Below, in pieces: positions 6,252 to 63,602 of a DNA stretch of 64,000 nt. The stretch comes from an uncultured Gemmatimonadota bacterium (GTDB lineage: Bacteria > SM23-81 > DAOVCL01), in the NCBI GenBank assembly GCA_964626665.1, contig CAZVGK010000001.1:141914-205913 (forward strand), written 5' to 3'. Each line of letters opens with the position of its first letter. Positions within the stretch are counted from its first letter, which is position 1. A program made the translations under genes and the position numbers. The notes under the pieces were generated by a model. The model was not told the DNA's origin. It saw only the letters and a list, made by a program, of their open reading frames with translations, and made no database searches.

Positions 6252-6448
6252 TCCATCTTAGCAGACTGAATGGAAAACCTTTGGTGATCAATGCGGAGTT
6301 GATAGAGCTCATCGAGAGAACGCCAGATACCATTCTCACCCTGACTACAGGGAGAAAGATAATGGTCAAGGAAGATGTTGCCGAGGTAGTGGAAAAGGTG
6401 AAAGAATATCTGAGGGAAGTTAGAATATGGACATTACCACCTTCATAG
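6248..6448 (+). CDS. flbD: Flagellar protein FlbD
   Basis: 66 aa; MIHLSRLNGKPLVINAELIELIERTPDTILTLTTGRKIMVKEDVAEVVEKV matches the FlbD pattern; directly upstream of motA. Confidence 0.8.
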   Translation: MIHLSRLNGKPLVINAELIELIERTPDTILTLTTGRKIMVKEDVAEVVEKVKEYLREVRIWTLPPS

Positions 6449-7221
6449 GAATCATCAGCGGGGTCTTCGTTCTGGTAGTGGCCATCTTTATGGGTGGGGG
6501 ACTGGCTATCTTTATCAACATCCCCTCTTTGATGGTGGTGGTAGGTGGAACCTTTGCCGCCACCCTGATTAATTTTCCCCTGCCGGAGATGCTCAGGTTG
6601 ATCAAGGTGGTGAAAAACGCCTTCCTGCACAAGGTGATCTCCCCGGTGGAGACGATCAATAAATTGGTTCACTTTGCGGAGATAGCGCGGAAGAACGGTA
6701 TGTTGGCCCTGGACAAAGAGCTGAAGGATATCGAGGATGCTTTCTTAAGGGAGGGGATGCAGTTGGCTGTGGATGGGATGGATCCGGAGCTGATCAGAAA
6801 TGTCTTAGAGGTGGAGAAGGCCTTTTTAGAGGAGAGACATACGGTAGGTCAGGGGATCTGTAAGGCTATAGGCAAATATGCCCCCGCTTTTGGTATGATG
6901 GGGACCCTGATCGGACTTATCCAAATGTTGAGAAGCCTTGATGATCCCTCGAAGATAGGGCCGGGGATGGCCGTGGCCCTGATCACCACCTTCTATGGGG
7001 CGATGATAGCCAACCTCCTCTTCCTCCCCTTGGCGGGAAAGCTGGAGACTCTCTCCCAGCAGGAGATGCTGCTCAAGGATTTGGCCATAGAGGGGATACT
7101 CGCCATCCAGGCCGGGGATAGCCCGCGTATAGTTGAACAGAAGCTACGGGCCTTCCTGGCCCCCCATCTGCGGGCGGGGATAAAGAGAAGAAAAGCGGGG
7201 GGGGAGGAAAGTGGCAATTAA
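6427..7221 (+). CDS. motA: Flagellar motor stator protein MotA
   Basis: MotA/TolQ/ExbB-type membrane protein (YAPAFGMMGTLIGLIQML); followed by motB. Confidence 0.85.
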   Translation: MDITTFIGIISGVFVLVVAIFMGGGLAIFINIPSLMVVVGGTFAATLINFPLPEMLRLIKVVKNAFLHKVISPVETINKLVHFAEIARKNGMLALDKELKDIEDAFLREGMQLAVDGMDPELIRNVLEVEKAFLEERHTVGQGICKAIGKYAPAFGMMGTLIGLIQMLRSLDDPSKIGPGMAVALITTFYGAMIANLLFLPLAGKLETLSQQEMLLKDLAIEGILAIQAGDSPRIVEQKLRAFLAPHLRAGIKRRKAGGEESGN

Positions 7222-7963
7222 GAGAAAGAAGAAAAAGGCAGAGGAGGGAGCACCTGAATGGATGGTCACTTATGGGGATCTGATGACCCTGTTGATGACC
7301 TTCTTCGTTCTGCTCTTCTCCTTCTCCTCCATTCAGGAGTCAAAGTTTAGAAATGCCATTGGTTCCCTGAAGGGTGCTCTTGGCGTGCTGTTAAAGAACC
7401 CCAAGGCAATGAGCCAGATAAAATCTGATTCCCATTTTCTCCCGCAGAGGGAAAAACGATTGATGGAAGCACTGAAAAAGGTGAGAAATCTTTCCCAGGA
7501 GGGAAAGTTCAAAGGGCAGATAAAGCTGATCAAAACAAAGAAGGGATGGTTGATCAGTATTTCCAATCCGGTGATGTTCGATATTGGCAAGGCCGACATA
7601 AAGCTTGGGCTCTATCCGGTCTTGGATATGATTGCCGATGTGATCAGGGCCAAACCGATGGAGGTGCGAGTAGTGGGCCATACCTGCGATCTTCCCATTC
7701 ACACCAGCCAGTTCCCTTCCAACTGGGAGCTTTCGACCACCAGGGCGGTAAATGTGGTAAAATACTTGGAATCCAAGGGTATCCCGGGGGCCAAATTCTC
7801 GGCTGAGGGAAGGTCTAAATACTCCCCCATTGTCCCTAACGACTCGGAGGAGCACAGAAGGTTAAATCGGAGGGTGGAGATATACCTCGATTCTATCAAT
7901 CCCCCGGTGGTGCCAGTAGAATCGATTAACCCTGTCCCATGGTCAGGAAAGGAGAAAAGTTAA
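7211..7963 (+). CDS. motB: Flagellar motor stator protein MotB (OmpA-like C-terminal domain), GTG start
   Basis: N-terminal TM helix, plug region, OmpA-like domain (VGHTCDLPIHTSQFPSNWELSTTRAVNVVKYL...RRVEI); GTG start with G-rich RBS. Confidence 0.85.
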   Translation: MAIKRKKKKAEEGAPEWMVTYGDLMTLLMTFFVLLFSFSSIQESKFRNAIGSLKGALGVLLKNPKAMSQIKSDSHFLPQREKRLMEALKKVRNLSQEGKFKGQIKLIKTKKGWLISISNPVMFDIGKADIKLGLYPVLDMIADVIRAKPMEVRVVGHTCDLPIHTSQFPSNWELSTTRAVNVVKYLESKGIPGAKFSAEGRSKYSPIVPNDSEEHRRLNRRVEIYLDSINPPVVPVESINPVPWSGKEKS

Positions 7964-8550
7964 TGGCAACCAAAAAGACGGAAACTGAAAAAGAGAAGAA
8001 GGGAAACTCACCTGCCGAAGTTCCTGAGGCTAAGGTAAAAAAGGGGGGAGAGGGGGACCAGCCAAAGAAGGGATTTATTCCCGGCAGAATGAAGCTAATC
8101 GCCCTTCCCCTGATTGTGGCGATTATATCCTGGGTGGTCATTACCAAGGTTATCTCCCCAAAGCTACTGGCCCAGAAGAAGGATTTAGAGAAGAAGAAGA
8201 CAGAGCTGAAAGAGGAACCACCCAAGGAGAAGCCAAAGGACGACATGGTCGGCCAGATCTACACCATTGAAAACATTATAGTTAACCCGGCAGATTCTAA
8301 CGGGGAGAGGTTCGTTAAGACTTCCATAGCCTTGGAGATGGAGCAAGCCAAACTTGCCGAAGAGCTCACCAAGAGGGATGTTCAACTACGGGACATATTG
8401 ATAGGCATCTTCACCAGCAAGACGGTAGAGGAAATCACTAACCCCGCCAAGAGGGAAAGTCTCAGACAAGAAATCAAGGGAAAGATAAACTCCCTTCTGG
8501 TAGGTGAAAAAATAAAGAATGTCTATTTCACGGATCTGGTAATCCAATAG
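7963..8550 (+). CDS. fliL: Flagellar basal-body-associated protein FliL
   Basis: Single TM helix plus C-terminal FliL-type domain (IYTIENIIVNPADSNGERFVKTSIALEM); start moved to the internal ATG at 7963, which has an AGGAAAGGAG RBS. Confidence 0.8.
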   Translation: MATKKTETEKEKKGNSPAEVPEAKVKKGGEGDQPKKGFIPGRMKLIALPLIVAIISWVVITKVISPKLLAQKKDLEKKKTELKEEPPKEKPKDDMVGQIYTIENIIVNPADSNGERFVKTSIALEMEQAKLAEELTKRDVQLRDILIGIFTSKTVEEITNPAKRESLRQEIKGKINSLLVGEKIKNVYFTDLVIQ

Positions 8551-8564
8551 GTAACACTTACCAC

Positions 8565-8710
8565 GGAATGGACCTTCATCAATGATCAATTAACAATTAG
8601 CAATGGTCAATTAGCAAGTCTTAAAGAGGGAAAATCCTGAAGTGTCAATTTCCATTGATCATTGATTATTTCTGTGCCAGTCCGTGGCTATCGGTGGTGA
8701 ACAATTATTC
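8565..8710. repeat. Composite MITE-like intergenic repeat in the fliL-fliM spacer
   Basis: ccacggaa ... caattaacaattagcaatggtcaattagcaagtcttaaagagggaaaatcctgaagtgtcaatttccattgatcattg ... tttctgtgccagtccgtggctatcggtggtg. Confidence 0.7.
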
Positions 8711-8725
8711 CAATAGGAAGGAACA

Positions 8726-9730
8726 ATGCCGGGTATCTTATCCCAGGAGGAGATAGACCAATTAGTTTCATCGGTGTCTGAGGGCAAAGGTCAGGGGAGA
8801 AGGCCCCCTGGCGCTGAAAAGGAGGCGATCCCCTATGACTTCCGCCAGCAGAACATAATTCCTAAGGGGTCTTTGCACGCCTTCCAGATAGTCCACAGCG
8901 ATTTTGCCAAATCCTTGAGTGGCTTTCTCCTGAGGAGCGTAAAGACCGAACTAATCGTGAACTTGGCCACTGTCAACACCATTCCCTTAGGGGAGTTTAT
9001 AAAATCGCGGGAGAATCCCACTTATCTAAATTTAGTAAGGCTGAAACCCTTTGAGGGCAACCTGATTATAGATTCCTCTCCTAACTTGGTCTTCCTTCTT
9101 GTTGACCTCCTCTTCGGGGGGACGGGCAGTCCTCCTTCTACAAACGGGTTAATTACCCATATGGAAAGGAAGTTCATGCGGAAACTGATGGAAGGTATGC
9201 TCGAGGAGTTCAAAACCACCTGGGAGAAGATAACCCTCTTTCATCCTAAGATCGAAGAGGAGGAAACCGACCCCTCAATTGTGGGCTCACCATCTAACCT
9301 GGAGAACGCAATGATGGTCATCTACGAATTGAGCCTGGAAAAGGGATCAGAAACCCACCACCTCCTGAGTTTTTGTTATAGCGCTAAACTCCTCAAATCC
9401 CTGGTGGCCGTTCTGGGCCAGAAGAGAGGGGGAGAGGAGAGGGAAGTCCCTCCGCAAGAGCGGGATCAATCGGGGAAATTGAGGAAGAGCTTGGGTCAAG
9501 TGGAGGTCCCGGTGGAGGCAAAGTTGGGTGAGGCCCACCTGACCATTAGGGATATGATTGACCTGCAGGCAGGGGACATCATCAGGCTGAGCAACTATGT
9601 GGGTGGAGATCTAACGGTTGAGGTGAAGGGAAAGCCAAAGTTTCTTGCCCGTCCTGGGGCTTACCGGGGCAAGGCGGCCGTAGTGGTTACCTCAACCCTG
9701 AAGGAAGGAGTGGTGAAAGATGGCGAGTAA
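8726..9730 (+). CDS. fliM: Flagellar motor switch protein FliM
   Basis: N-terminal CheY-P binding motif (ILSQEEIDQLV), middle FliM domain, C-terminal FliN-like domain. Confidence 0.9.
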   Translation: MPGILSQEEIDQLVSSVSEGKGQGRRPPGAEKEAIPYDFRQQNIIPKGSLHAFQIVHSDFAKSLSGFLLRSVKTELIVNLATVNTIPLGEFIKSRENPTYLNLVRLKPFEGNLIIDSSPNLVFLLVDLLFGGTGSPPSTNGLITHMERKFMRKLMEGMLEEFKTTWEKITLFHPKIEEEETDPSIVGSPSNLENAMMVIYELSLEKGSETHHLLSFCYSAKLLKSLVAVLGQKRGGEEREVPPQERDQSGKLRKSLGQVEVPVEAKLGEAHLTIRDMIDLQAGDIIRLSNYVGGDLTVEVKGKPKFLARPGAYRGKAAVVVTSTLKEGVVKDGE

Positions 9731-10361
9731 AAAAGAGAAAGTGAGCCCACCTCCCCCGGAGGAGAAGCAGAGTAAAGAGGAGAAGGGAATTCCAGAGGTG
9801 GACGAAAATTTAGAGGAAAAGGATAAAAGCCAGAGGGAAGAGAAAACCCCTGAGGTAGCTGAAAATTTAGCGGGAGATCAGGAGGAAACTTCTGCTGGTG
9901 GAGGGGAGCAGGGTGGGGAACCTCTGGGAGAAGAACCAGGAGATGAGAGCAAAGCCTCCGGAGAGCAACCGGATCCTGATGCCAACTTAGAATGGCCAGA
10001 GGAGGATACCTCCTCTGGTGAAGAGTCAGCCCCCCAGGAGGAGGTGGCAGTTCAGGATGTCCAATTTGACCAGATTAAGCCCCAACAATCAAGTGGCCAA
10101 CCCAACAATATAGACATCCTCCTGGATGTTGACCTTCCCATCTCCGTGCAATTAGGAAAGACAACAATGACCATCCAGGAGCTCTTGGAAGTTGGCCCCG
10201 GTTCAGTGATCGAGCTGGACAAAATGGTGGGGAACCCAGTGGAGATCCTGGCTAACAACAAGACCATAGCCCAGGGAGAGGTAGTAGTTGTTGACGAAAA
10301 CTTTGGGGTGAAAATAACCTCCCTGATCAGCGCGGAAGAGAGGATAAAAAGCCTGAGATGA
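9720..10361 (+). CDS. fliN: Flagellar motor switch protein FliN/FliY with acidic N-terminal extension
   Basis: C-terminal SpoA/FliN domain (LDVDLPISVQLGKTTMTIQELLEVGPGSVIELDKMVGNPVEILANNKTIAQGEVVVVDENFGVKI). Confidence 0.85.
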   Translation: MASKKEKVSPPPPEEKQSKEEKGIPEVDENLEEKDKSQREEKTPEVAENLAGDQEETSAGGGEQGGEPLGEEPGDESKASGEQPDPDANLEWPEEDTSSGEESAPQEEVAVQDVQFDQIKPQQSSGQPNNIDILLDVDLPISVQLGKTTMTIQELLEVGPGSVIELDKMVGNPVEILANNKTIAQGEVVVVDENFGVKITSLISAEERIKSLR

Positions 10362-10906
10362 GGTTCCTCTTCCTGATAAGCTCCGTCCTAAATCCTCAGG
10401 GGCCTCCCCTTCCTCTCTCCTATCAGGATCCAACCCCCCTCTCCTCCGTGGGTTTCTGGGGCCTGGCGGGTAAAACCATTGGTTCACTCTTCCTTGTGCT
10501 GGGTTTAATTGTTTTGCTCATCTTTTTCCTCAAAAAACTCCACTTCCACAGCCCCTTCTCCAATGCCCGCTCTGGGATGATGAAGGTTATCTCTCACCAA
10601 ACTCTCCTCCCGAAAAGGGCCCTCTACTTGGTAAAGGTGGCTGATAAGTTCTTGGTTTTAGGGGTAACATCCTCGGAGATAAGTCTGATTACCGAACTGG
10701 AGAATGGGTTGGATGCCGATTTCGGATCTTCCCATCATCCCAGCGAATTTTCCCAACAGTTGGATAGTTTCCTCTCCAAATTCAAGGGTGGGGAGCCATC
10801 CCCGAAGAGGATGATATCCCTTCAATCAGACTTTCAGGGCAATCTAAGGAAGATACAGGAAAGAATAGGGAAACTGGAGAGGTTGGTCAACTCCAATTTG
10901 CAGTAG
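10358..10906 (+). CDS. Probable FliO/FliZ-like flagellar export protein (single-pass membrane protein)
   Basis: Position between fliN and fliP; one hydrophobic helix (IGSLFLVLGLIVLLIFFL); no sharper motif, start codon uncertain. Confidence 0.4.
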   Translation: MRFLFLISSVLNPQGPPLPLSYQDPTPLSSVGFWGLAGKTIGSLFLVLGLIVLLIFFLKKLHFHSPFSNARSGMMKVISHQTLLPKRALYLVKVADKFLVLGVTSSEISLITELENGLDADFGSSHHPSEFSQQLDSFLSKFKGGEPSPKRMISLQSDFQGNLRKIQERIGKLERLVNSNLQ

Positions 10907-10980
10907 CGCGGTGGCCAACCCCTGTTCTGCTGGGATCAGATCGGGGGGCTGACCACTCTGCCATCAAGGAGGTTTAAATC

Positions 10981-11754
10981 TTGAGAGATCAAAATTCATG
11001 GAAGAAGTTTAGATCGATCCTCCTGAGGAGGTTCCTTCCGCTGATCCTCCTGCTGTTTTTTTTCTCACCCCAGGCAAAGGCCTTTTCCTTTCCTCAGCTT
11101 CCGTTAGGGGGAGGGGGGACCCCCCAGAATGTCTCCACTGCCATAGAGATACTTCTCCTCCTCACCGTCATCTCCCTGGCCCCTGCCATCCTGGTCACCT
11201 TGACCTCCTTCACCCGCATTATTGTCGTTTTCTCCCTGTTGAGACGCTCTATGGGAACTATGCAGATGCCCCCCAACCAGGTGATGATCGGCCTGGCCCT
11301 TTTTCTCACCCTATTTGTAATGGCCCCCGTCTTCAATCAGATAAATGATCAGGCACTTAAACCATTTTTAGCCGAGAAGATAAGCCAACAGGAAGCCTAT
11401 GATCGCGGGATCCAGCCGCTGAGAGATTTTATGCTCAACCAAACAAGGGAGAAGGATCTGGCCCTCTTTGCCCATTTCGCTAAAATTGAGAGACCTAAGG
11501 GACCCTCTGACGTCCCTACCTATGTTATCATTCCCGCATTCATCATCAGTGAGCTGAAGACGGCCTTTCAGATGGGGTTTCTTATCTATTTGCCTTTTCT
11601 GATCATCGATATGGTGGTGGCCAGTGTGCTTATGTCAATGGGGATGTTGATGCTCCCCCCGATAATGATCTCCTTACCCTTTAAGATCCTCCTCTTTGTG
11701 ATGGTGGATGGATGGAATTTGGTGGTGAGATCATTGATAATGAGCTTTCACTAA
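10981..11754 (+). CDS. fliP: Flagellar export apparatus protein FliP (TTG start)
   Basis: Signal-peptide-like N-terminus and conserved FliP core ([25 protein letters not shown]); AGGAGG 8 nt upstream of the TTG. Confidence 0.9.
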
Positions 11755-36750: not shown

Positions 36751-36839
36751 AACTTCTTTCTCAATTTAAGCGTTTCGCTAAAGCCTTAAACACGAATTCC
36801 ACAAATATACAAATAGCACGAACTACAATTCTTGTAAAT

Positions 36840-36900
36840 TCCCAGGGGATCTGTTTTTAGGGATCCTCACTCTTAATTCACATTTCTGTTTTTCTCTGAG
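36840..36900. repeat. Short AT-rich repeat in the rplB upstream spacer, shared with 43105-43150
   Basis: aggatcctcactcttaattcacatttctgtttttctctgagggatcc here versus aggatcctcattcttaattcaaaattcttaattgcc at 43110-43146. Confidence 0.5.
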
Positions 36901-37025
36901 GGATCCCACTAATCAGCAGTCAGCTCCCCCCAATTTCCAATTTTCGCCCTTACGAGTATCGACTCTTCTATTCATGTAGATTCGTTTATTCGTGTCATTT
37001 GTGTTCTAAAGCTTCTACTTTGGCC

Positions 37026-40000
37026 TTATTTGAGTAACACCATTTTTCTGGTAAGCGAGAAATCTCCTGCTTGAAAACGGCAAAAATAGATACCACTTGT
37101 CACCTCTTTTCCACTCCGATCCTTGCCATCCCAGTAAGTTTTGTAATACCCACTTGACTTATCCTCATCCACCAGAGTTTTCACTAATTGCCCTTTTATA
37201 TTATAGATCTTGAGGGTCACATAGGTGTTTCCCGCGAGTCCGTAATTGATCTCCGTGATTAGGTTAAAAGGATTAGGGTAGTTCTGGGAGAGGGTAAACA
37301 CAGATGGCACTGGAGATTCGTTGCACGAGGGTACGGACTTTTTATCCTCTCGAACATAATGGCCGGTGGTGACCAGGACGAAATCCCTCTCATAATCACT
37401 CAACTGCTTGGGGGCAGAAAAGGCCAGCCTCACCTCTTGCCCAGGAATCAACTCGGCATAGACTCCATCTGGCTGCAAAAGGGACTTCAGGACAGAACCA
37501 TTTGCTGAGTGAAGGGCCTTAGCCAGTGGACAACTCCGAATCTTTAAGGACACATCTTCAGCCCCAACCAGCCCAATAAAATCTAAATCATAAGGTATCT
37601 GCCAAAGGAGACGCACCTCTACCTCTCTCCCCTCAGATACTCTCCATGGCAACTCTACCAACTCCGTATACTTGTTCTCCCTATAACTGATTCCCAATAC
37701 TGTCTGAGATTTGGGGAAATCATCTCCAATAATCAACATAGGTTCCGCTTTGGGACGCCTTTTGCTCTGGTCTTTAGCAACCGTTCCACCTATGACCAAG
37801 GCCACTTTCCTAATCCCTTTAACCTGGCCGAAATTAACCGTGAGCTCATCCCCTCCTCTCCCCCTGAAAACCAGACCATCCGCCGCTGAAACATATTTTG
37901 AGAATTCTCCACCCAAAGAATCAACAGCAGATATTGGGCCAGTCAGCTTCTTGTAACCCAATATCTTTCCCGATGTGCTAACTGCAACCTTAACTTCAGA
38001 TGGATGCTCCACCGCCATAAGCTGTAGCTGATCGATCCAGGAGTGTTCATTTTCAAATTCGCGAAGCTCAAGATAGTAGTTTCCGTCTTCAGGGACAAGG
38101 GGTTGTTGAAGCTGGTAGTAATCGCTTATGTCCTTACCCTCATTCTCCAGCAGTTCAGCAAGAGGTAGAAGGTTATTGTCCTCTACACTCTTCTCTCCAT
38201 CCCAGGTAAACACATAGGGACAACCATTGTAGGGCGAATGATGATGATAAAAAGCTCCCATATCTGCCCTTGTCCCATCAGGATCCTTTGGACTAAGGGG
38301 ATAACCTGTATCTATGCAAGGTGAACCCGCTTGTAGGTGATAATCACCATTGGCAGAATTTAAGAACATTGGATCAGCAGATATATCTTCTCTACCTACT
38401 GCACAACCCTGGTAGTTAACGCCATTACCCCATAGGTCATTGTAAGATATGTTTGGGAAAAGATCAACATCACTATAAATACCATAATCGCTATTACTGG
38501 TGATTATGGTATTTGTAATAGTCAGATAGCAGTTATCAATGCATCGAATACCCGTGTTATTACCAGGGATCGTGTTGTTGATAATATTTGGACAGCATTG
38601 TAGTGTGCATTGAACAGCAATATTATTATTAGTGAGCAAATTCCTCTCAATATCGGGGGAGGCAGAAAACATACAACCTATCCCAAAATGTGACATATCG
38701 GTAATGGTATTACTACGGATTTTGCAGAGATGAGATGATGACCCCCAGCAGAGGATACCATAGGTATCATCACCGTTGCCAAGGATTGAGTTGTTACTAA
38801 TAGTTAGATAGTTAGAAGTAGGTGAGCAGGCTAATCCCTCGTTTTCAACAGTAATCTTATTGTGGGAAATCTCCCCCCACCCATTAGCGACAACAGCATA
38901 TTGACAGTGACTTATCTCGCTGTTGCTTATGGTGGCAAATGAATTGAACCAGACCCCTTGATAGGCGTCTTTTATGGCGCAAAAATTTAAAGTTAAATTA
39001 CCACCATCGCCAATATGGGTGGATATCCCTCCCCAATCTGAGATAGAAGGGGCCGAAGTATTTGATGAACAAAAGGTAATTTCGTAGTCATCTACCCCGA
39101 TAGCCCTTAATGCCCCATCCACCAAAAGCTCACATTTATCTGGATAAAGCCCTATATTTTGGACATCACTATTTGCCGAGAAGTAAACAGTAACCCCAGG
39201 GTCTATAGTGAGGAGGGCTCCATCATCCACAGTTACATCGCCATATACATAGATGTCCCCTGACCAGGTGGTGTTTTCAGTAATATGTCCATGAACTCCA
39301 CATGCAAGTTCGGTTTCATAAGGTATGTTGTTGTGTTTAGTAACTGTAACCTTCAACTCATCATAGGTGGAAAAAGAGGTGTTGAAGGTCGCCTCTCCGT
39401 TAGCATCGGTATATTGGATTTCGTGATAGTCCTCACTCTCTTTCCATAGACATACCAAGGCATCCGGAACACCAGCATTGATAGTAATACTGCTGGGGCC
39501 GATCTGATAGAAGCAGGGATGGGAGACGGCAAGAGGTTGAGGCACCCCTGTCCAGATCCGCAGGGCCGGATCCCCAAGGACATGGAAATCCTCGAACTCA
39601 ACCCTGGTTACCTCGGGGGTAGGTGCCCATTTTGAAGGATATCCTGCCCCACCTGTGAGGACATATTTGTCGAACATCCAGAACTTGCCGTAGTTCAGGA
39701 TCGCACCCAACCGGTCTGTCGGGCTACCGATCTGTGTGCCGCAGTACCCGGGGTCGAAGTCGTCCCAGATGGCGTCGTAGAACCCCTTGCAAAGCTCATC
39801 GTTATACCCGCTGTAGCTGATCCTGGTCGAGCCGATGAAGCCCACAACCCCCTTCCCCTGGGCCTTCAACAGTGCCTCTCCCAGGCAATCCGTGATCAGA
39901 TAATCGGGGGAGTCCAGATCGGTCTCCCCATCGAACCATCCGGTCCGGCAATTAATGCTGAACATCACCGGGAGCTTATCACCGTTACCCAGGCTGGGAA

Positions 40001-41471
40001 TATCCTCGGTGACGAACCACGGCTTATTCCAACCATTGTAGCCACCAGATGGGGCATTATAGGAGTCTCCGTGATCCCGATGATTGACTAAGAAACATCC
40101 CTGGTTGATCGCATCGATCACGTCCTGGGTGGTGCCATCGAAGGTCAGATGCCCCGGGATGGGATCTCCATTGTGGTAGTACTGAGGGGTTGACCCTATT
40201 GAGCAGGTGTAAACCCTCTGACGGTCATACCCCTCGCCCTCTAAGAAATCCTGGACCACCTCAGAGGTGTAAATGAAAAACCTGTCCTCCCGGCCATCAG
40301 GTTTGAAGTCCTCGAAATGGCCCGCCAACAGAACCCGGTTGAACCACTCCGAGCTTGTTGTATACGGATCCCGCTCATACCCCAGGATCTTGTCCACGAC
40401 TATCCCGATATCCGACTCATCCACCGGCAACCTCCCCACCAGGATATCGGGGAAATCGACCAACTGAGTGTCAGGTGGGTCGTTCTCTGTATCGACTGTG
40501 GCGTAGTAGAGATCAGTCCCGACCTTTTCGTCTCCAAATGGATGAGGATACTTGTAATGGACTGGTAGAAGATCTGCATCGCCGACCAGAAGGAGAAAAG
40601 ATGGGGCCGGATCCCAGGTGTCATAGGCAACCTGGACATAATCGGCGATCTGGTCAGCCGTGGGATCACCCCCTAACTCCGAGAGCTTGACGACTCTGGT
40701 CTTGAGTCCTGTCCGCTGCCTCCATTCAGCTAAAGGCAGGATCTCATCGTAAAGGTCGTCATGCACCATGATCAGGTAGTCCGCCCCGTCGCCACCCTTC
40801 CCCTTCCCCCCACCCACTGGTTCGTAGTTGAGGGCCAGCCTGTTGAGCATAGACCGAAAATGGGGGGAATCCTTGGGGCTGGCCACGGATCCGGCACCAC
40901 TCACGCTCACCCTGAGCTCGGGATAGACCCTCAACTGCCCGGTAACAGGATTGTGCTGCACCGGGTAGAGGATGACCAGGACAAGCCTATGACCCCGAAG
41001 TACCCTGGGAAAGCTGAGGGCGACTATGTTCTTCGGGTAAAAGCCGTCCTCGGAATATAGGGAGTCATCCCTGACGAACTCGGTCGTGTCGTCCCACTCG
41101 ATCCGTGGCTCCTGGGCCGGATAGACCAGATACCCATCCAGGATCTGACTGGTCGAGTCGATGATGGTGACCGTGGGCTCGACCCCGGGCTCGATCTCCA
41201 TCAGTATGGCCACGGTGGGGAGCTCTGGCCGGCCGATCTCGGCGATATGCCCGCCGCCGGAAAACCTCAGCAGTTGATAGGTATCCCCCTCGGCCTCCAT
41301 GTCGTGGCTGATCAGACCATATGTCTCCAGCTCGATGATTTCCGAGCCAGAAAGGGTAATCTGCGGCCTGGTCGGAGTGGTCGCATCCCCAAAGGAGACC
41401 CACATTCCGTAACCAGCGCTGGGGACAAATCCCAGCAAGGCCACCACTATAAGAAAACGAATCGCCTTCAT
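37026..41471 (-). CDS. Secreted multidomain gingipain-like cysteine peptidase (family C25 fold) with parallel beta-helix repeats and a Por/T9SS-type C-terminal sorting domain
   Basis: Signal peptide; His region VNHRDHGDS and Cys region LPVMFSINCRTGWFDG with ...LGDPALRIWTGVP, resembling the gingipain catalytic domain; Asn/Gly/Ile-rich beta-helix repeats; C-terminus LSQNYPNPFN...IYNIKGQLVKTLVD...GIYFCRFQAGDFSLTRKMVLLK. Confidence 0.75.
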   Translation of the reverse strand: MKAIRFLIVVALLGFVPSAGYGMWVSFGDATTPTRPQITLSGSEIIELETYGLISHDMEAEGDTYQLLRFSGGGHIAEIGRPELPTVAILMEIEPGVEPTVTIIDSTSQILDGYLVYPAQEPRIEWDDTTEFVRDDSLYSEDGFYPKNIVALSFPRVLRGHRLVLVILYPVQHNPVTGQLRVYPELRVSVSGAGSVASPKDSPHFRSMLNRLALNYEPVGGGKGKGGDGADYLIMVHDDLYDEILPLAEWRQRTGLKTRVVKLSELGGDPTADQIADYVQVAYDTWDPAPSFLLLVGDADLLPVHYKYPHPFGDEKVGTDLYYATVDTENDPPDTQLVDFPDILVGRLPVDESDIGIVVDKILGYERDPYTTSSEWFNRVLLAGHFEDFKPDGREDRFFIYTSEVVQDFLEGEGYDRQRVYTCSIGSTPQYYHNGDPIPGHLTFDGTTQDVIDAINQGCFLVNHRDHGDSYNAPSGGYNGWNKPWFVTEDIPSLGNGDKLPVMFSINCRTGWFDGETDLDSPDYLITDCLGEALLKAQGKGVVGFIGSTRISYSGYNDELCKGFYDAIWDDFDPGYCGTQIGSPTDRLGAILNYGKFWMFDKYVLTGGAGYPSKWAPTPEVTRVEFEDFHVLGDPALRIWTGVPQPLAVSHPCFYQIGPSSITINAGVPDALVCLWKESEDYHEIQYTDANGEATFNTSFSTYDELKVTVTKHNNIPYETELACGVHGHITENTTWSGDIYVYGDVTVDDGALLTIDPGVTVYFSANSDVQNIGLYPDKCELLVDGALRAIGVDDYEITFCSSNTSAPSISDWGGISTHIGDGGNLTLNFCAIKDAYQGVWFNSFATISNSEISHCQYAVVANGWGEISHNKITVENEGLACSPTSNYLTISNNSILGNGDDTYGILCWGSSSHLCKIRSNTITDMSHFGIGCMFSASPDIERNLLTNNNIAVQCTLQCCPNIINNTIPGNNTGIRCIDNCYLTITNTIITSNSDYGIYSDVDLFPNISYNDLWGNGVNYQGCAVGREDISADPMFLNSANGDYHLQAGSPCIDTGYPLSPKDPDGTRADMGAFYHHHSPYNGCPYVFTWDGEKSVEDNNLLPLAELLENEGKDISDYYQLQQPLVPEDGNYYLELREFENEHSWIDQLQLMAVEHPSEVKVAVSTSGKILGYKKLTGPISAVDSLGGEFSKYVSAADGLVFRGRGGDELTVNFGQVKGIRKVALVIGGTVAKDQSKRRPKAEPMLIIGDDFPKSQTVLGISYRENKYTELVELPWRVSEGREVEVRLLWQIPYDLDFIGLVGAEDVSLKIRSCPLAKALHSANGSVLKSLLQPDGVYAELIPGQEVRLAFSAPKQLSDYERDFVLVTTGHYVREDKKSVPSCNESPVPSVFTLSQNYPNPFNLITEINYGLAGNTYVTLKIYNIKGQLVKTLVDEDKSSGYYKTYWDGKDRSGKEVTSGIYFCRFQAGDFSLTRKMVLLK

Positions 41472-41488
41472 CCTAACCTCCTTGACTT

Positions 41489-42703
41489 TTATCTCACCAA
41501 CATCAACTTCCTCACATTGGTGAGGGCTCTCCCTCTTCTGTTCTCAGCCCGCAACAGGCAAAGATATATCCCACTTGGTACTTCCTTCCCTCCCCCATCC
41601 CTCCCATCCCAGATCACCCGATGCTCTCCAGGTGGCTGTGGGCCATCCACCAGTGTCCGCACCACCTGTCCCAAGATGTTGTAGACCCTCAAGGTGGTTG
41701 GAACTGACCACTGACCACTGACCACTGGGGAAGGGAGGTGGTAGGGGATGACGGTACCCGAATTGAACGGGTTCGGATAGTTCTGGCCCAGGGCGAAAAA
41801 CCCTGGAACGATGGCCTTATCCTCAGATGGAACCCAATTGTGTGGCCTTGACCTGGGGTTTCTGACCCCATCGACCTCCCCAAATTGAGGACCTGTCGGC
41901 TCCGTGGAGGTGGTGGTGCAATCACCGTCGCCGATCGTGTCCACAGGAAAGCCAAGGGTGGTGTCGATATTCCCCTCACACTGCAGGTAGTTGCCGTCCA
42001 GGAAGCCCCCTCCCATGATGGTGTGGGATCCAAAGTTCCAACCGATGGTGAATATAATGTCGTTCTCCAACAACAAAGGATTGCTCGGTTCCAACCCAAA
42101 GAGCGCTCCTCCTCCTCCCGACCTCAAAAAGCAATATTCGATCACTGGAAAGGAAGAACTGTCACAGGCGACCAAAAACCCCCCCGTCTCAACCTGACTG
42201 CTCGTCCACATCAGCTTGCAGTGGGAGATGGTGGGAGAGGCGTTAGATATCTGGATCATTATACCCTCGGCACTGCTGGTGTGCTCCACCACACAGTACC
42301 TAAGAATGCACTCCGAATCCACACAGGTATCGTTAAATTTTATCCCCCCCCAGGCAGTCCAAGGCCACTCTTCACCATCGTCGGTGAAGCTAATCATCAC
42401 ATCTGGCTTCCCGCAGGCCTCTAAGGCCCCGTTGATGGTCAACCCAATAGCCTCCTCGAACTTCAACACCATCCCCGGATCTATGACCAGCTTGTCGTTG
42501 GCCGAGATGGTTAGGTTCCCACTTATCAGATAATACCCCTCATCCCGCCAGGTGACATCATCGGTAAGCTCGTCCACCATCTGCATGGTGTAAACCGTCC
42601 CATCCCCAGGGGAAACCCAATCGGCCCAGGCCAAAAGGGGGAAACACCAGATGATGCTGATAAAGACGATTAAACTCCTCCATTCTCTCATCCTCACCTC
42701 CAA
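41489..42703 (-). CDS. Secreted protein with Por/T9SS-type C-terminal sorting domain; central domain not assigned
   Basis: Signal peptide; C-terminus ALGQNYPNPFN...LRVYNILGQVVRTLVDGPQPPGEHRVIWDGRDGGGKEVPSGIYLC. Confidence 0.65.
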   Translation of the reverse strand: MEVRMREWRSLIVFISIIWCFPLLAWADWVSPGDGTVYTMQMVDELTDDVTWRDEGYYLISGNLTISANDKLVIDPGMVLKFEEAIGLTINGALEACGKPDVMISFTDDGEEWPWTAWGGIKFNDTCVDSECILRYCVVEHTSSAEGIMIQISNASPTISHCKLMWTSSQVETGGFLVACDSSSFPVIEYCFLRSGGGGALFGLEPSNPLLLENDIIFTIGWNFGSHTIMGGGFLDGNYLQCEGNIDTTLGFPVDTIGDGDCTTTSTEPTGPQFGEVDGVRNPRSRPHNWVPSEDKAIVPGFFALGQNYPNPFNSGTVIPYHLPSPVVSGQWSVPTTLRVYNILGQVVRTLVDGPQPPGEHRVIWDGRDGGGKEVPSGIYLCLLRAENRRGRALTNVRKLMLVR

Positions 42704-42790
42704 TTCCTTACCTCACCAATATCAACTTCCTCACGTTGGTGAGAGCTCTTCCTCTTCTGTAATATAGGGACACTTCCCAATAATTGTTAA
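42704..42790. repeat. Duplicate of the 404-aa gene 3' end plus junction (ghost of a CTD gene 3' end)
   Basis: 42691-42790 aligns with 41461-41560 (…ctcaccaaYatcaacttcctcacRttggtgagRgctctYcctcttctg…); on the - strand it would encode ...RALTNVRKLILVR-stop. Confidence 0.6.
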
Positions 42791-42935
42791 GTCCTCAAGC
42801 ACTATCGTCCCCTCTGTCTCCCTCGCTTATCTTTTCACCTTTGTACCAAATCTCTATAAGCCTTTGTCTTTCGTATTTTCGATCTCTGAATTCTTTTTGC
42901 CCACTCCTGTAGATTCTTTTATCCGCGTCACCTGT

Positions 42936-42959
42936 CCCGCACTTATGCATAAGTGCGGG
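42936..42959. repeat. Perfect 24-nt palindrome in the rplW-CTD gene spacer
   Basis: cccgcacttatgca|tgcataagtgcggg. Confidence 0.5.
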
Positions 42960-43104
42960 GTGAATATTCCAAAGCTCTACAGGTCAAGGGTTCTTAGGGC
43001 TTAAGCTCCTTCGCCGGACTTGGATAGAAGGGGCCTCAAAAGGCCCTTAACCTTGCACTAAAGTGCGGCAGAATGGACATTCCTCTAAGTTCCCAAAGGT
43101 CAGA

Positions 43105-43150
43105 GATCGGTCTTTAAGGATCCTCATTCTTAATTCAAAATTCTTAATTG
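43105..43150. repeat. Short AT-rich repeat downstream of rplW, shared with 36840-36900
   Basis: aggatcctcattcttaattcaaaattcttaattgcc; the ttcttaattg module also occurs at 1160-1180 and, inverted, at 32275-32295. Confidence 0.5.
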
Positions 43151-43153
43151 CCT

Positions 43154-44690: not shown

Positions 44691-44999
44691 TCAGACTCTT
44701 ATCTCCACATCCACTCCGGCAGGAAGGTCTAACCTCATCAAGGAGTCTACCGTCTGAGGAGTGGTATCTTCAATGTCTATAAGCCTTTTGTGGATTCTGG
44801 TCTCAAATTGCTCCCGGGATTTTTTGTCCACATGGGGGGAGCGTAAAACAGTATAGATGGACCGCTTGGTGGGTAGAGGTATGGGACCTAAGACCTTGGC
44901 CCCTGCCCTCTTAGCTGCCCTGACGATCTCACCGGTTGAGCGGTCAAGCATCACATGATCATAGGCTTTTAGCCTAATTCTTATCTTCTGGCCTGGCAC
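44691..44999 (-). CDS. rpsJ: 30S ribosomal protein S10 (GTG start)
   Basis: [43 protein letters not shown]; GGAGG RBS. Confidence 0.95.
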
Positions 45000-45041: not shown

Positions 45042-46934
45042 CTATTTGAGAAGCGCCATCTTTTTAGCAACTTTAACATCCCCAGCTTGGATTTTATAAA
45101 AATAAACCCCACTTGCCACCTCTTGCCCATTGTCGTCTCTTCCTCCCCAACAGATATTATACCGGCCGGCTCTTTGTCTCTCATCTACTAAGGTTTTAAC
45201 CTTCTGTCCTAAGAGATTGTAAACAACCAAACTCACCTGGGCATCCATCGGAAGTTCATAGCCTATCTCGGTCTCCGGGTTGAAAGGATTGGGGAAATTC
45301 TGGGCCACAAAAAACTCCTTTGGCAATTTTTCGTCTTCATTGGGTTCTACAAACACTTCGACTGAGTAAGACGCCTCCATAACCCCCCAGATGTTATAGA
45401 CCTCGATGGTTATTGTGCTGTCCCAAACTTCATCCATAGGATCTTCGTAACTAAAGGTGAAGCCTGTCACTTGGTCATTAGGCGGATAACCTCCAAAGTC
45501 AGTTGGATGAATGGTTATCCCATTATGTGTGGGGTTGTCGTCCCCACAGTTGTGTTGGTCATCATAGTCCACATACTTATCATAACTCCATCCTCCTGTG
45601 CCCGAGCCGTATACCCGCACCCTATTCAGATCAAGTTCGTTCCCAGGCACTGTCACCCAAAAAGAGGCTCTCGGCGAATGGGAGCTAACACCCCATATGG
45701 TCATATTTTCAGTATCTGTATGGGGCAAAACATTCATCGGGTTCCTTAAGTAAGAAAAGGCGGTTCCACCCAGGTAATCCTCAGCATGTAAGTGATCAAG
45801 CCCAATATGCCTAATCCCTCCAATTCTGGTCAGTCCAGCAAAAACACTATCTCCAAAATTTACACTGGGATTTACATGCACATATTCCATACGCTGATTT
45901 GGAATCACAGCATCTCTAATCCTAACCGACTGGCTGCCTATGTGATCAACAACACCGGTAAAAACAGCGTAAACATCATCCTCTGTCGCAGGATTATCAT
46001 CATCATCAATGTCAAGTCCGCCATGCCAATCAAAGGTAGTGTCATTCCCAGAGATTAGGATTCTCGGCCCAAAGGGACTGGTTAAACTATGAAGGGGTGT
46101 GGTGTTTCGAGACAAAGGCCAGTAATAATTCTCCGTTCTAATTCTCAGAATAACATCGTCAACAAATGCGCCTTTATGTGTCTGAGTGCCATCGCTTTCG
46201 AAAGCAAACGCTATCCAAACTTGAGGGTGACCACAAACATTACCTATGTCAGGGACATTGGTCAGATCGAAGTTTTCAAAGCGCCAGACATCCCCTCCAT
46301 CGCCATAGGCCGCATAACCTGAGAAATTTGTGCCATCGATTGATGCAAGTCGAGAGAACATATCAGCTTCGTACATCGTACGACACCAATAATAAAAGTG
46401 CAGCTCCGCATCGGTGACGTTGCCAACACTAAGGTCGCAAGGACCCCAAATCATAAAGGTGAGAACATTATTGGCATAATCATCAAACTCTGGATCAAGG
46501 CCATTTACCCCATCCCGGCAACACCATGCACTATATTTTCCTGAATGAGGATTATAGTCATCTTTACCCCATAAATGACCGGTGGGATTGCCTGTGTGCC
46601 CAACATCTCGGCGGCTCCAAGCATATCTGGGAAAAGACGATTCGAAATCTTCGGTCATAATGTTAACCCAATGTGGCAGAAGGAGGGCATCATTCCCATC
46701 TTTGATGTTTCCATTCTGGCTGTTTCCCATATGTATAATGCGTACACTTTCTGAAAGTTCTGAATTTTTGCCACAAGAAACCAATGCTTTATCTCCATCC
46801 AGCAATTGATAGTGAATCTTCTGCGAGCTGACAAATTCCCCGATTTCAACTTTAGCTAAAGCAACGGTAGCACCTATTAGAGGAAACCCTATTATAAAAG
46901 AAGCACATATTCCTAATTTCCAATGAACCTGCAT
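45042..46934 (-). CDS. Secreted protein with a possible M23-like metallopeptidase region and a Por/T9SS-type C-terminal sorting domain
   Basis: Signal peptide; HGGLDI and LDHLHAE resemble the M23 HxxxD and HxH motifs (tentative); C-terminus FFVAQNFPNPFN...VYNLLGQKVKTLVD...GVYFYKIQAGDVKVAKKMALLK; AT-rich third codon positions. Confidence 0.6.
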   Translation of the reverse strand: MQVHWKLGICASFIIGFPLIGATVALAKVEIGEFVSSQKIHYQLLDGDKALVSCGKNSELSESVRIIHMGNSQNGNIKDGNDALLLPHWVNIMTEDFESSFPRYAWSRRDVGHTGNPTGHLWGKDDYNPHSGKYSAWCCRDGVNGLDPEFDDYANNVLTFMIWGPCDLSVGNVTDAELHFYYWCRTMYEADMFSRLASIDGTNFSGYAAYGDGGDVWRFENFDLTNVPDIGNVCGHPQVWIAFAFESDGTQTHKGAFVDDVILRIRTENYYWPLSRNTTPLHSLTSPFGPRILISGNDTTFDWHGGLDIDDDDNPATEDDVYAVFTGVVDHIGSQSVRIRDAVIPNQRMEYVHVNPSVNFGDSVFAGLTRIGGIRHIGLDHLHAEDYLGGTAFSYLRNPMNVLPHTDTENMTIWGVSSHSPRASFWVTVPGNELDLNRVRVYGSGTGGWSYDKYVDYDDQHNCGDDNPTHNGITIHPTDFGGYPPNDQVTGFTFSYEDPMDEVWDSTITIEVYNIWGVMEASYSVEVFVEPNEDEKLPKEFFVAQNFPNPFNPETEIGYELPMDAQVSLVVYNLLGQKVKTLVDERQRAGRYNICWGGRDDNGQEVASGVYFYKIQAGDVKVAKKMALLK

Positions 46935-46952
46935 AACTCCCCCTACTCTAAG

Positions 46953-48353
46953 TCAAAGACTAGCCTTAACTTTTTGAACCACTTTTCTTCCCCTATCCAA
47001 AATGATGAAAGACCTCATCCCATTTTCGTAACTCATCATAGGGAGGATGCGAACTGTGTCATAAGACTTCTTGCATATTTCACCTGTTTCTAAACTAAAG
47101 ATAACGGCAACCTCCTCAAATTTTAAGCTAACTCTCTCCCTTCTGCGCATCGTAGTAACAAAGCTCTTGTTAATGGTAGATGCGCAACATTGATGCCAAT
47201 AACTATTCCAGTCTTTCCCTAAAACTTTTCTCCATCTTCTTTTTCCAGTAAGAAGATCAAAGATATCTATCGTAGATGGAGGCCCACTTTCGGCAAGGAG
47301 ACTCTTAGAGTCGTCAATAAAACAGAACCAGTTTAATCCTCCTACTTTTTCTATCCGCCTTTCGGGCCCCATTGCTGCCTCTATCGTCACAAAGTCTTTG
47401 CTGTTCCACAATATATCCCCTTCATTGCTTAATACTACCAGTCTCCTCTCCCCGCCGCTTCTCTCTTCACCCGGAAGATTGGAATAGTCCACCGCAATGG
47501 CCATAAACTTCCCACTTTCACTCACCTCAAGTTGCGGTATTTCTGTTGGATTAAAAAACAATCTAAAGTGAAGGGGATCTCCTAATCTTTCACCAATATC
47601 AATTTCCCACTTCGTTTTTAAATTCTTTACATTAAAAAGAAGCAACTTGACATAAGGCCTTTCCAGGTTGTATCCCTTGAAATAGACGACTTCGCTGTCA
47701 TTTAAAAATGTGGCCACCCAATTAAATTCCGTGCGTATAATTTTAGAACCTCTCTCAATGGATTCCTTCCCTTTGTCCCACCATAACTCCTCACCAGTTC
47801 TATTATCAAAAACCCTGAAATATCCACCCCACCTTTCGACACCGCTTTTGTGAGTTGTTATGGCATAGTCACCTTTGGGCGATAAGGTGAGTCCTGGTGC
47901 AAAAAGAGGAGTCTCCCACTTGAGATTGCCATCCTTGTCGTAACTCTTCGTAATCACCCACTCACATCCGGCACGAGAATTTATGATTACTTCTCCCCCT
48001 TCCGCTGAGATCGACACATTATCCACTCCACCATAATATTCGCCACGTTCATCTGGCTTCAGGTCAAATCTCTTCTCCCACAAAATATTTCCATTAGGCC
48101 CCAAATAGTAAACAACACTGCAAAGGCCTTCCCTCTTATCAAAAATATCTGTCAGAACAACTATGTTCTCATTGCCAACCTGGATGTCTCGTATCTTGCC
48201 TCCAAATTCCCTTTCCCAAATCAGCTTTGAGTTGGGGAATAAGCCCTTTGCCGGCGATTCCGCTATGGCACTGCCTACCCACATCATCAACAACGCCAAT
48301 ACAGAGAGAGCCAGAACCCTCAGGATTCCTTTTCTCAACACTTGCTTCCCCAT
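46953..48353 (-). CDS. Hypothetical secreted or membrane-anchored protein (466 aa), possibly beta-propeller-like
   Basis: N-terminal signal/anchor (LRVLALSVLALLMMWVGSAIA); Trp/Gly-rich repeats; AT-rich codon usage like the neighbouring 630-aa gene; 18 bp upstream of it. Confidence 0.55.
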   Translation of the reverse strand: MGKQVLRKGILRVLALSVLALLMMWVGSAIAESPAKGLFPNSKLIWEREFGGKIRDIQVGNENIVVLTDIFDKREGLCSVVYYLGPNGNILWEKRFDLKPDERGEYYGGVDNVSISAEGGEVIINSRAGCEWVITKSYDKDGNLKWETPLFAPGLTLSPKGDYAITTHKSGVERWGGYFRVFDNRTGEELWWDKGKESIERGSKIIRTEFNWVATFLNDSEVVYFKGYNLERPYVKLLLFNVKNLKTKWEIDIGERLGDPLHFRLFFNPTEIPQLEVSESGKFMAIAVDYSNLPGEERSGGERRLVVLSNEGDILWNSKDFVTIEAAMGPERRIEKVGGLNWFCFIDDSKSLLAESGPPSTIDIFDLLTGKRRWRKVLGKDWNSYWHQCCASTINKSFVTTMRRRERVSLKFEEVAVIFSLETGEICKKSYDTVRILPMMSYENGMRSFIILDRGRKVVQKVKASL

Positions 48354-48449: not shown

Positions 48450-49655
48450 CTATTTTATAACCTCTGCTACGACCCCTGCTCCCACGGTTCTTCCCCCCTC
48501 CCTGATGGCAAACCGTAGCTCCTTCTCCATCGCTATCGGCGTGATTAGCTCCCCCTCTATGGTCACATTATCCCCGGGCATGACCATCTCTACCCCCTCC
48601 GGTAGCTTTACCACCCCAGTCACATCCGTGGTGCGAAAATAAAACTGCGGCCTATACCCACCGAAGAAAGGTGTATGCCTACCCCCTTCCTCCTTCGTCA
48701 ATACATAGACCTCACCCTTAAACTTGGTATGCGGGGTGATCGACCCCGGGGCTGCTATTACCATCCCCCTCTCTAACTCATCCCTGTTTACCCCCCGCAA
48801 CAGCAAACCCACATTGTCCCCAGCCTCTGCCCGATCCAGGATCTTCCGAAACATCTCTACCCCAGTCACTACCGTCTTCTTCGTTTCCCTGATCCCTACC
48901 CTCTCCACCGCATTCCCTACCTTCACCGTCCCCCTCTCTACCCTCCCTGTCCCTACTGTCCCTCGCCCAGTAATGGAAAATACATCCTCCACAGACAGCA
49001 AGAAGGGCTTATCCAAATCCCTCTTCGGCTGAGGTATATACTTGTCCACCGCATCCATTAGCTCATAGATGCTCTTGAAGGCCTCACTCTCCTTCACCTC
49101 AGGGTTGGCTGCTGCCTCCATCGCCCGCAGGGCACTTCCCCTGATCACCGGCACCTCATCCCCCGGGAAGCTATACTCCGTGAGCAACTCCCTGACCTCT
49201 AACTCTACCAAATCCAATAGCTCAGGATCATCTACCTGATCTACCTTGTTCATATAGACTACTATATAGGGCACCCCTACCTGCCTGGCCAAAAGGATGT
49301 GCTCCCTGGTCTGGGGCATCGGCCCATCAGCAGCGGATACCACCAGGATGGCCCCATCCATCTGCGCCGCCCCGGTGATCATATTCTTCACATAATCGGC
49401 ATGCCCCGGACAGTCTATGTGCGCATAATGCCTGGCGGCGGTCTCATACTCCACATGGGCTATCGCTATGGTTAACCCCCGCTCCTTCTCCTCAGGAGCA
49501 TTGTCTATAGAATCAAATGTCCGGGCCTCCGCCAGGCCCTTCCTATGCAAGATCATGGTAATCGCCGCGGTCAAAGTGGTCTTCCCATGATCCACATGCC
49601 CAATAGTCCCTATGTTTATGTGCGGCTTCGTGCGCTCAAACTTCTTCTTCGCCAT
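48450..49655 (-). CDS. tuf: Elongation factor Tu
   Basis: [15 protein letters not shown]...DCPGHADY... Confidence 0.97.
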
Positions 49656-63525: not shown

Positions 63526-63602
63526 TGGCAGGCCTGGAGGGATTCGAACCCCCAACTTCCGGTTTTGGAGACCGGCGCTCTAGCCGTTAGAGCTACAGGC
63601 CT
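63526..63602 (-). tRNA. tRNA-Trp (anticodon CCA), CCA end encoded
   Basis: Hand-folded cloverleaf: acceptor AGGCCTG/CAGGCCT, D-stem GCTC/GAGC, anticodon stem CCGGT/ACCGG with loop CTCCAAA, T-arm GGGGG-TTCGAAT-CCCTC. Confidence 0.9.

Follow-up and report, generated by a model that had tools for sequence, protein, structure and literature searches.

The window, by which we mean the whole 64,000-nt stretch of DNA analysed here, contains an S10 operon in which rpsJ, rplC, rplD and rplW are followed, in the direction of the operon, by a first spacer (spacer A), a 400-amino-acid (400-aa) gene, a 1481-aa gene, a second spacer (spacer B) and then rplB, rpsS and rplV. The last native gene before the interruption is rplW (L23; 43154-43444, minus strand; Pfam PF00276, E 1e-34), and the first native gene after it is rplB (L2; 35929-36750, minus strand; PF00181 and PF03947). 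Between them lie spacer A (42692-43153), a gene for a 400-aa secreted protein with a FlgD_ig-type C-terminal sorting domain (CTD; 41489-42691, minus strand; PF13860), a gene for a 1481-aa C25 (gingipain-family) peptidase with a beta-helix and a CTD (37026-41471, minus strand; PF01364, E 6e-63) and spacer B (36751-37025). The larger protein joins the C25 peptidase and its propeptide to a beta-helix region and a CTD of the same type as that of the 400-aa protein, with further Pfam matches to PF08126, PF13229, PF13860 and PF18962. The gene order of the S10 operon is among the most conserved in bacteria. From the gene order and the Pfam domains we conclude that the operon is broken between rplW and rplB by two secreted-protein genes, an insert of 6.2 kb within an rplW-rplB interval that spans 6.4 kb in the window. 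The two inserted proteins carry no transposase or integrase domain (their Pfam matches are FlgD_ig, Peptidase_C25, Propeptide_C25, Beta_helix, NosD and Por_Secre_tail only), no recombinase gene lies between rplW and rplB, and a tRNA and tmRNA scan for an att-type target found a single gene, a tRNA-Trp at 63526-63602, distant from the insertion.

The 400-aa gene starts at an ATG at 42691 served by a GGAGG Shine-Dalgarno sequence; the list of open reading frames begins it at a TTG at 42703 (404 aa). Spacer A measures 462 nt to the ATG and 450 nt to the TTG, in line with the length of about 450 bp given in a preliminary description of this DNA, which started the spacer at 42791 and so omitted its last ~90 nt. 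A perfect palindrome and a hairpin reported there are likewise present. The palindrome occupies 42936-42959 as 12 + 12 nt with arms CCCGCACTTATG and CATAAGTGCGGG that are 100% complementary; no other perfect palindrome in the 64 kb has arms of at least 9 nt, and shuffled sequence yields a mean of 0.05 for 10-nt arms. It forms the core of a long imperfect palindrome (42906-42983; outer arms CCTGTAGA and TCTACAGG) that folds into a hairpin of -33.3 kcal/mol (z -4.5; none of 200 shuffles was as stable); the 3′ arm of this hairpin is the module that we call D6a below. Two short hairpins follow one another at 43031-43069 on the minus strand, GCAC-N4-GUGC at 43050-43069 and GGGCC-N6-GGCCC at about 43031-43047, the latter with the loop TCAAAA and matching the hairpin described earlier near 43030; their fold energy is -17.1 kcal/mol (z -1.5). 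No intrinsic terminator is called on the minus strand in spacer A, and a U-run is absent after the palindrome and, on either strand, after both short hairpins. The palindrome and the first short hairpin have a common motif, CCGCACTT..AGTGC(GG), in which GCACT/AGTGC half-sites stand at two spacings, with no third copy in the window.

Spacers A and B share two segments. Segment 1 pairs 43105-43144 with 36848-36887 at 85% identity over 40 nt, and a gapped alignment with one 6-nt gap extends it to 43079-43144 against 36828-36887 (49/66 identical, 74%; pairwise E 2e-9). Segment 2 pairs 42905-42935 with 36972-37002 (25/31 identical, 81%; E 1e-4). Motifs for the two segments are GGATCCTCAYTCTTAATTCA and GAACACRAATGNCNCGAATAAACGAATCT, and with at most 3 mismatches each consensus pattern matches these two sites only in the window, a pair of matches seen in 0 of 100 shuffles. 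Each segment thus has two copies in the window, with no further copy there and, outside rplW-rplB spacers, none in ~2 Mb of fetched loci. The claim that the two spacers share sequence, which could have come down to short AT-rich words, is borne out well beyond such words by the direct alignment of one spacer against the other. The moderate identity of 74-85% is the one feature that would suit a chance likeness of AT-rich sequence, and we regard that explanation as negligible in view of the pairwise E values, the shuffles and the independent homology of each segment to the spacers of relatives. All repeats of segments 1 and 2 are direct, and their order along the operon is nested: segment 1, segment 2, the genes, segment 2, segment 1. 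This nesting was not mentioned in the preliminary description.

The rplW-rplB junction in relatives

A search with L4 recovered a small clade at 93, 78, 73, 71 and 68% identity, followed by matches at ~50% from Zixibacteria and others; Zixibacteria are the nearest named ribosomal-protein matches of the clade. In six relatives (protein identity 68-93% for L4 or 87-94% for L2), counting every relative with a contig that covers the junction, rplB comes directly after rplW across a non-coding spacer of 104-178 nt. The spacer measures 143 nt in L172 (93% L4), 122 nt in L178, 178 nt in the sister species represented by L176/L177, 129 nt in L168, 104 nt in L169/L170 and 158 nt in L167 (68% L4). The insertion is derived. 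The flanking ribosomal genes of the window are closest to those of L172 and L178, at 87-90% nucleotide identity that is equal on both sides of the insertion, which indicates that the flanks were inherited vertically and excludes a horizontal replacement of one of them. Twenty-three contigs of the window's own population, recognized by an identical L23, have both spacers 100% identical, so that they offer neither variation within the species nor an intermediate state.

Across 78 diverse genomes scanned with L2, the gap between rplW and rplB is about 24 nt at the median and at most 326 nt, and an insertion on the kilobase scale is therefore exceptional. The best matches of this genome-collection scan reach at most 71% identity, with no near relatives among them, and the scan served to give the distribution of gap lengths; among the matches listed in a metagenome scan with L23 were distant ones of at most 60% identity. 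A literature search for rplW-rplB insertions returned nothing relevant.

Leader modules and their copies

The short native spacers (L172, L178, L168 and L169; type I) consist of two parts, a 5′ part, A1, that reads AGGCAATTAAGAAT..GAGGATCCC..GGGAACTTAC.AGAAT and an rplB-proximal part, A2, that reads TTGTAATTCGTG..CCATTTGTGGGATTCGTGTT..GCTTAAA.TGAGAA.G.AGTT and is followed by the ATG. Both parts are found in the window, A1 twice. The first copy, A1a (43079-43153, minus strand), comprises the 75 nt that begin with the first base past the rplW stop codon, contains segment 1 at 43079-43144 and corresponds to the 5′ half of the native spacer (L169 1-36, 92%; L168 5-61, 79%, E 2e-10; L172 2-73, 71%, E 8e-8). 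The second copy, A1b (36828-36887, minus strand), runs straight into A2 (36751-36827, minus strand), the native rplB-proximal leader, which matches a profile of the relatives' sequences with an nhmmer E of 3e-21. A1b and A2 together align continuously with the relatives up to the rplB ATG, and positions 5-129 of the L168 spacer match positions 148-275 of spacer B at 78% identity (E 1e-24). From the alignment of A1a and of A1b plus A2 with native spacers we conclude that segment 1 is a duplicated 5′ half of the native leader. A1a and A1b are 85% identical over 59 aligned columns, apart from a 6-nt indel, a divergence comparable to that between species of the clade.

Segment 2 (42905-42935) belongs to a different native module. 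It falls within D6a plus W (42858-42955, minus strand), W being about 60 nt downstream of D6a, and this region has its homolog in the native L176/L177 spacer at positions 13-118 (blastn against L176, 71/106 identical, E 7e-10). A second copy, D6b (36967-37006, minus strand), lies 19 nt past the stop codon of the 1481-aa gene and is 85% identical (34/40) to positions 31-70 of the L176 spacer. Since both segments match native spacers, they are leader modules that derive from the target and do not represent the termini of the insert. D6 in turn repeats A2 in inverted orientation (local score 34-35 against 13 +/- 2.3 in shuffles, reached in 0 of 2000, z about 9). The L176 spacer holds D6 and A2 as arms of 27 nt with 81% complementarity, so that D6 pairs there with sequence just upstream of rplB, and a D6:A2 stem is part of the minimum-energy fold of the L176 spacer as well as of that of spacer B (z -4.4 against shuffles). 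A1 is absent entirely from L176, and D6 is absent from L172, L178, L168 and L169.

The spacer as a whole is unstable in the clade, with three architectures. In L180 only the last 53 nt before rplB can be recognized, and the 187 nt upstream of the conserved stretch consist of an unrelated set of GC-rich hairpins, at which the contig ends. The last ~55 nt before rplB (36751-36805 in the window), reading ..GGRATTCGTGTT..GCTTAAA.TGAGAA.G.A.TT ATG, are conserved in L172, L178, L168, L169, L176 and L180, and they may be a clade-specific rplB leader element.

An alternative is that the shared segments act in cis as regulatory sites, for example as an operator, a site of processing or a promoter element, and that selection has kept them on both sides so as to co-regulate the inserted genes and rplB, in which case they would not be passive relics of a duplication. 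In addition to the ~55 nt conserved next to rplB in every relative, this reading draws on the better conservation of A1a, which is 98% identical to L169 against 89% for A1b, on the D6:A2 stem that is native in L176 and occurs again in spacer B, and on the pairing partner that D6a has of its own within the very stable hairpin (z -4.5). The native spacers, however, fold no better than expected (z -0.5 to +1.3), with no excess stability, and their consensus structure has compensatory changes in 0 of 21 predicted pairs and thus no covariation. With Rfam 15, the whole window at gathering score gives only a tRNA, and both spacers at E <= 10 give best scores of 12-19 bits against gathering thresholds of 40-55, so that there is no Rfam match to cite in its favour, and the promoter-like spacing varies among relatives. 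The lack of A1 in L176 and of D6 in L172, L178, L168 and L169 further shows that neither module is indispensable. We consider selection for co-regulation an unlikely origin of the shared segments.

The remaining stretches of the two spacers have no recognizable counterpart. In spacer A these are the ~120 nt after A1a (within 42906-43078), which hold the short hairpins and the left arm of the palindrome and have no detectable relative, and Y′ (42761-42857, minus strand), ~97 nt that precede a CTD tail described below and for which no homolog was found. In spacer B the 79 nt of Z (36888-36966, minus strand) match neither the relatives nor spacer A. Altogether the stretches without a homolog come to 79 nt in spacer B and ~215 nt in spacer A, the latter made up of 42761-42857 and of 43020-43078 with its flanks. 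Alignments of the unmatched parts of spacer A (X and Y′) as a degenerate copy of A2, or as a match to Z, were not significant. The best sigma-70-like match of the region, TTAACA-18-TATATT at 42761-42790 (10/12 positions), lies directly upstream of the CTD tail, and the inserted genes are probably transcribed either from this promoter-like site or by read-through of the operon.

Probable source and possible routes of the inserted block

The left edge of the inserted block is marked by the 3′ end of another CTD gene. This 53-nt remnant (42708-42760, minus strand) encodes ..RRGRALTNVRKLILVR*, a canonical CTD end with its stop codon, and stops 16 nt short of the start codon (ATG) of the 400-aa gene, whose own tail (41489-41541) it matches at 91% identity. 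It is also 86.5% identical to the tail of P0001, an intact 296-aa CTD gene on contig L085 of the metagenome-assembled genome GCA_030670005.1, which surfaced in a homolog search with the 400-aa protein whose matches were nearly all to the CTD only. On L085, P0001 is followed after 22 nt by an ortholog of the 400-aa gene (84% nucleotide identity), beside genes with GWxTD domains; the contig ends before any peptidase gene. From 42760 down to 42246 the window runs colinearly with L085 9604-10121 (84% identity), and at 42760/42761 the homology ends abruptly. From the P0001-like tail and this abrupt end we place the left border of the translocated module within the 3′ part of a P0001-like gene, the remainder of which is gone. 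The same assembly, GCA_030670005.1, has an uninterrupted S10 operon (L176) and, on another contig (L085), the locus with P0001 and the 400-aa ortholog. A more distant metagenomic contig, L175, carries a pair formed by a 402-aa gene and a C25-peptidase gene that is colinear with the window at 66% nucleotide identity and adjoins RadC- and TrmB-type genes, a non-ribosomal context. The inserted genes thus have orthologs at other loci, their left breakpoint lies in a CTD gene, and native leader modules bracket them.

Neither segment 1 nor segment 2 flanks the orthologous genes in L085 or L175. This absence bears on whether the segments could be terminal repeats belonging to a mobile element with both CTD genes as cargo, which their position near both boundaries of the 6.2-kb insertion would fit. 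The same two segments occur in the uninterrupted spacers of relatives that do not have the genes, they are direct rather than inverted with a mutual identity of only 81-85%, and no transposase or integrase accompanies them, so that we hold an origin as terminal repeats to be highly improbable. The preliminary description had read the related sequence at both boundaries as the ends of one inserted or rearranged element; it marks an insertion or rearrangement indeed, as the six relatives with adjacent rplW and rplB attest, and what it consists of is copies of the target spacer, not the inserted element's ends.

The other suggestion made at that stage was decay of former genes. In favour of such a protein-coding origin for the shared segments, and for spacer A beyond them, stand the CTD tail at 42708-42760, a true remnant that had not been singled out before, and a weak stretch resembling the N terminus of L23. 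Outside the tail, translated searches of both spacers gave nothing above noise (tblastn with P0001, both inserted proteins, the 466-aa and 630-aa open reading frames (ORF466/630), L2, L3, L4, L23, S10 and S19), and the shared segments match non-coding spacers of relatives. Only 42708-42760 qualifies as a pseudogene or gene remnant, and a coding origin of the shared segments seems to us very unlikely. The L23-like stretch lies at 42752-42802 (minus strand), where it abuts the CTD-tail remnant, and its frame VLEDLTIIGKCPYITEE resembles the L23 N terminus VRDPRTIIRRPYITEK. The match has an E of about 0.03 and a DNA z of about 3, no better than several spurious matches in the same searches; if real, it would represent a second, truncated rplW 5′ end at the junction.

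A junction composed of CTD tail, Shine-Dalgarno sequence, signal peptide and WVS.GD.T precedes both inserted genes (42597-42760 and 41380-41541). The two copies are in register at a spacing of 1217-1219 nt, and the gene bodies are unrelated. The junction is conserved between genes and could promote recombination between arrays of CTD genes. We also tried a simple tandem duplication of the 400-aa gene with the 5′ end of the 1481-aa gene and rejected it, as only the junction of tail, Shine-Dalgarno sequence and signal peptide is common to the two units and not the gene bodies.

Taken together, we favour, at a probability of roughly 75%, the reading in which the native rplW-rplB leader received a lineage-specific insertion, with spacer A as its left scar and spacer B as its right scar together with the working rplB leader. 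The repeats have the properties of a flanking duplication derived from the target: they are homologous to the uninterrupted target, and the inserted genes occur elsewhere in relatives whose target is empty. In such an event a block made up of the 53-nt CTD tail, the 400-aa gene and the 1481-aa gene would have moved from a non-ribosomal, P0001-type locus into the leader, the move would have cut off the upstream CTD gene, and leader sequence would have been duplicated during the move or before it. Candidate routes are a single-crossover (Campbell-type) integration of a circular intermediate with homology to the leader, recombination between diverged leader variants, and template switching during replication. 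The outcome would be an operon in which native context is kept both after rplW (A1a) and before rplB (D6b-A1b-A2, with the D6:A2 stem), and an insertion into an essential operon was plausibly tolerated because this context was kept on both sides.

Several aspects of the sequence count against this insertion reading. The nested order of the repeats (A1, D6 ... D6, A1) is not what a single simple target duplication or tandem duplication would produce, so that two or more events, or a mosaic origin, would be needed. D6-W is missing from L172 and L178, the two closest relatives in which the region was recovered, which implies that it was lost there or was exchanged between lineages or leader variants. 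The stretches of both spacers that have no homolog likewise fall outside this account.

The locus presents a recent 6.2-kb secreted-protease insertion for which a sister species provides both the empty site and the probable source locus. As such it is an unusually clear natural example of an essential operon that absorbs foreign genes by way of an expanded leader, with leader sequence left on both sides, and it will confuse synteny-based annotation and the extraction of phylogenomic markers in this lineage.

CTD genes also occur elsewhere in the ribosomal-protein block of the clade. A second lineage-specific insertion lies at 45042-48353 (minus strand) in the window, between tuf (48450-49655) and rpsJ (44691-44999), and encodes a 466-aa protein with a signal-peptide-like N terminus and no Pfam match on record, together with a 630-aa FlgD_ig/Por_Secre_tail CTD protein; in L167, L169 and L176, rpsJ follows tuf after only about 10-13 nt. 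In L167 (GCA_029932675.1), positions 6079-11643 hold three CTD-protein genes directly after rplX, at the place occupied by rplE in L176, with products of 454 aa, 239 aa and 1333 aa, the last of which has weak C25 peptidase, beta-helix and FG-GAP matches. CTD-protein genes are thus present at three sites of the block, tuf|rpsJ and rplW|rplB in the window and after rplX in L167, and this wider pattern is more interesting than the scar. Very tentatively, the str/S10/spc block could be a recurrent landing pad for CTD-tagged (T9SS-type) secreted-protein genes, with the long modular rplW-rplB leader and its D6:A2 stem acting as an insulating or processing element, a possibility to which we give limited weight. 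If so, foreign genes would ride on ribosomal-protein transcription and leave the expression of rplB undisturbed.

Comparison with known systems

The interval differs from an insertion sequence or transposon in that it has no transposase, and in place of terminal inverted repeats with a target duplication of 2-15 bp it has direct repeats of 31-66 nt that are 74-85% identical. It also differs from an integrase-mediated genomic island, which has a tyrosine or serine recombinase at one end and identical att cores, in having no recombinase gene between rplW and rplB and repeats that have diverged. MITE and REP elements resemble the shared segments in being short, non-coding, partly palindromic and repeated, but the copies found here are confined to rplW-rplB spacers (in the 64-kb window and about 2 Mb of fetched loci). 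Leader RNAs of ribosomal operons, such as the L4-binding S10 leader of E. coli, are similar in presenting a conserved non-coding stretch upstream of a ribosomal-protein gene, in some cases with a long stem. Unlike S10-type leaders, the element described here lies inside the operon between rplW and rplB, has no Rfam match and no covariation, shows no excess stability in its short native forms and varies greatly in module content between species.

Products of template switching (FoSTeS/MMBIR) are alike in having short direct and inverted copies of nearby sequence at their junctions, as D6 is an inverted A2; against this parallel, the inverted D6:A2 pair is native in the insertion-free L176, and the inverted copy therefore predates the insertion or is independent of it. 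Integration scars, among them islands bounded by attL and attR, Campbell-type integrations and the products of homology-facilitated illegitimate recombination, share with this locus the target-derived direct repeats that bracket an insert in a conserved locus and the preserved native context of both flanking genes. The rplW-rplB interval differs from them in that no integrase or recombinase is present in or beside the insert, the repeats are about 60-75 nt long and 81-85% identical, a second repeat pair is nested within the first, and the cargo is two secreted-protein genes with a truncated tail. Set against these systems, the repeats are a rearrangement scar of an ordinary kind in an unusual place, and not a new element or mechanism.
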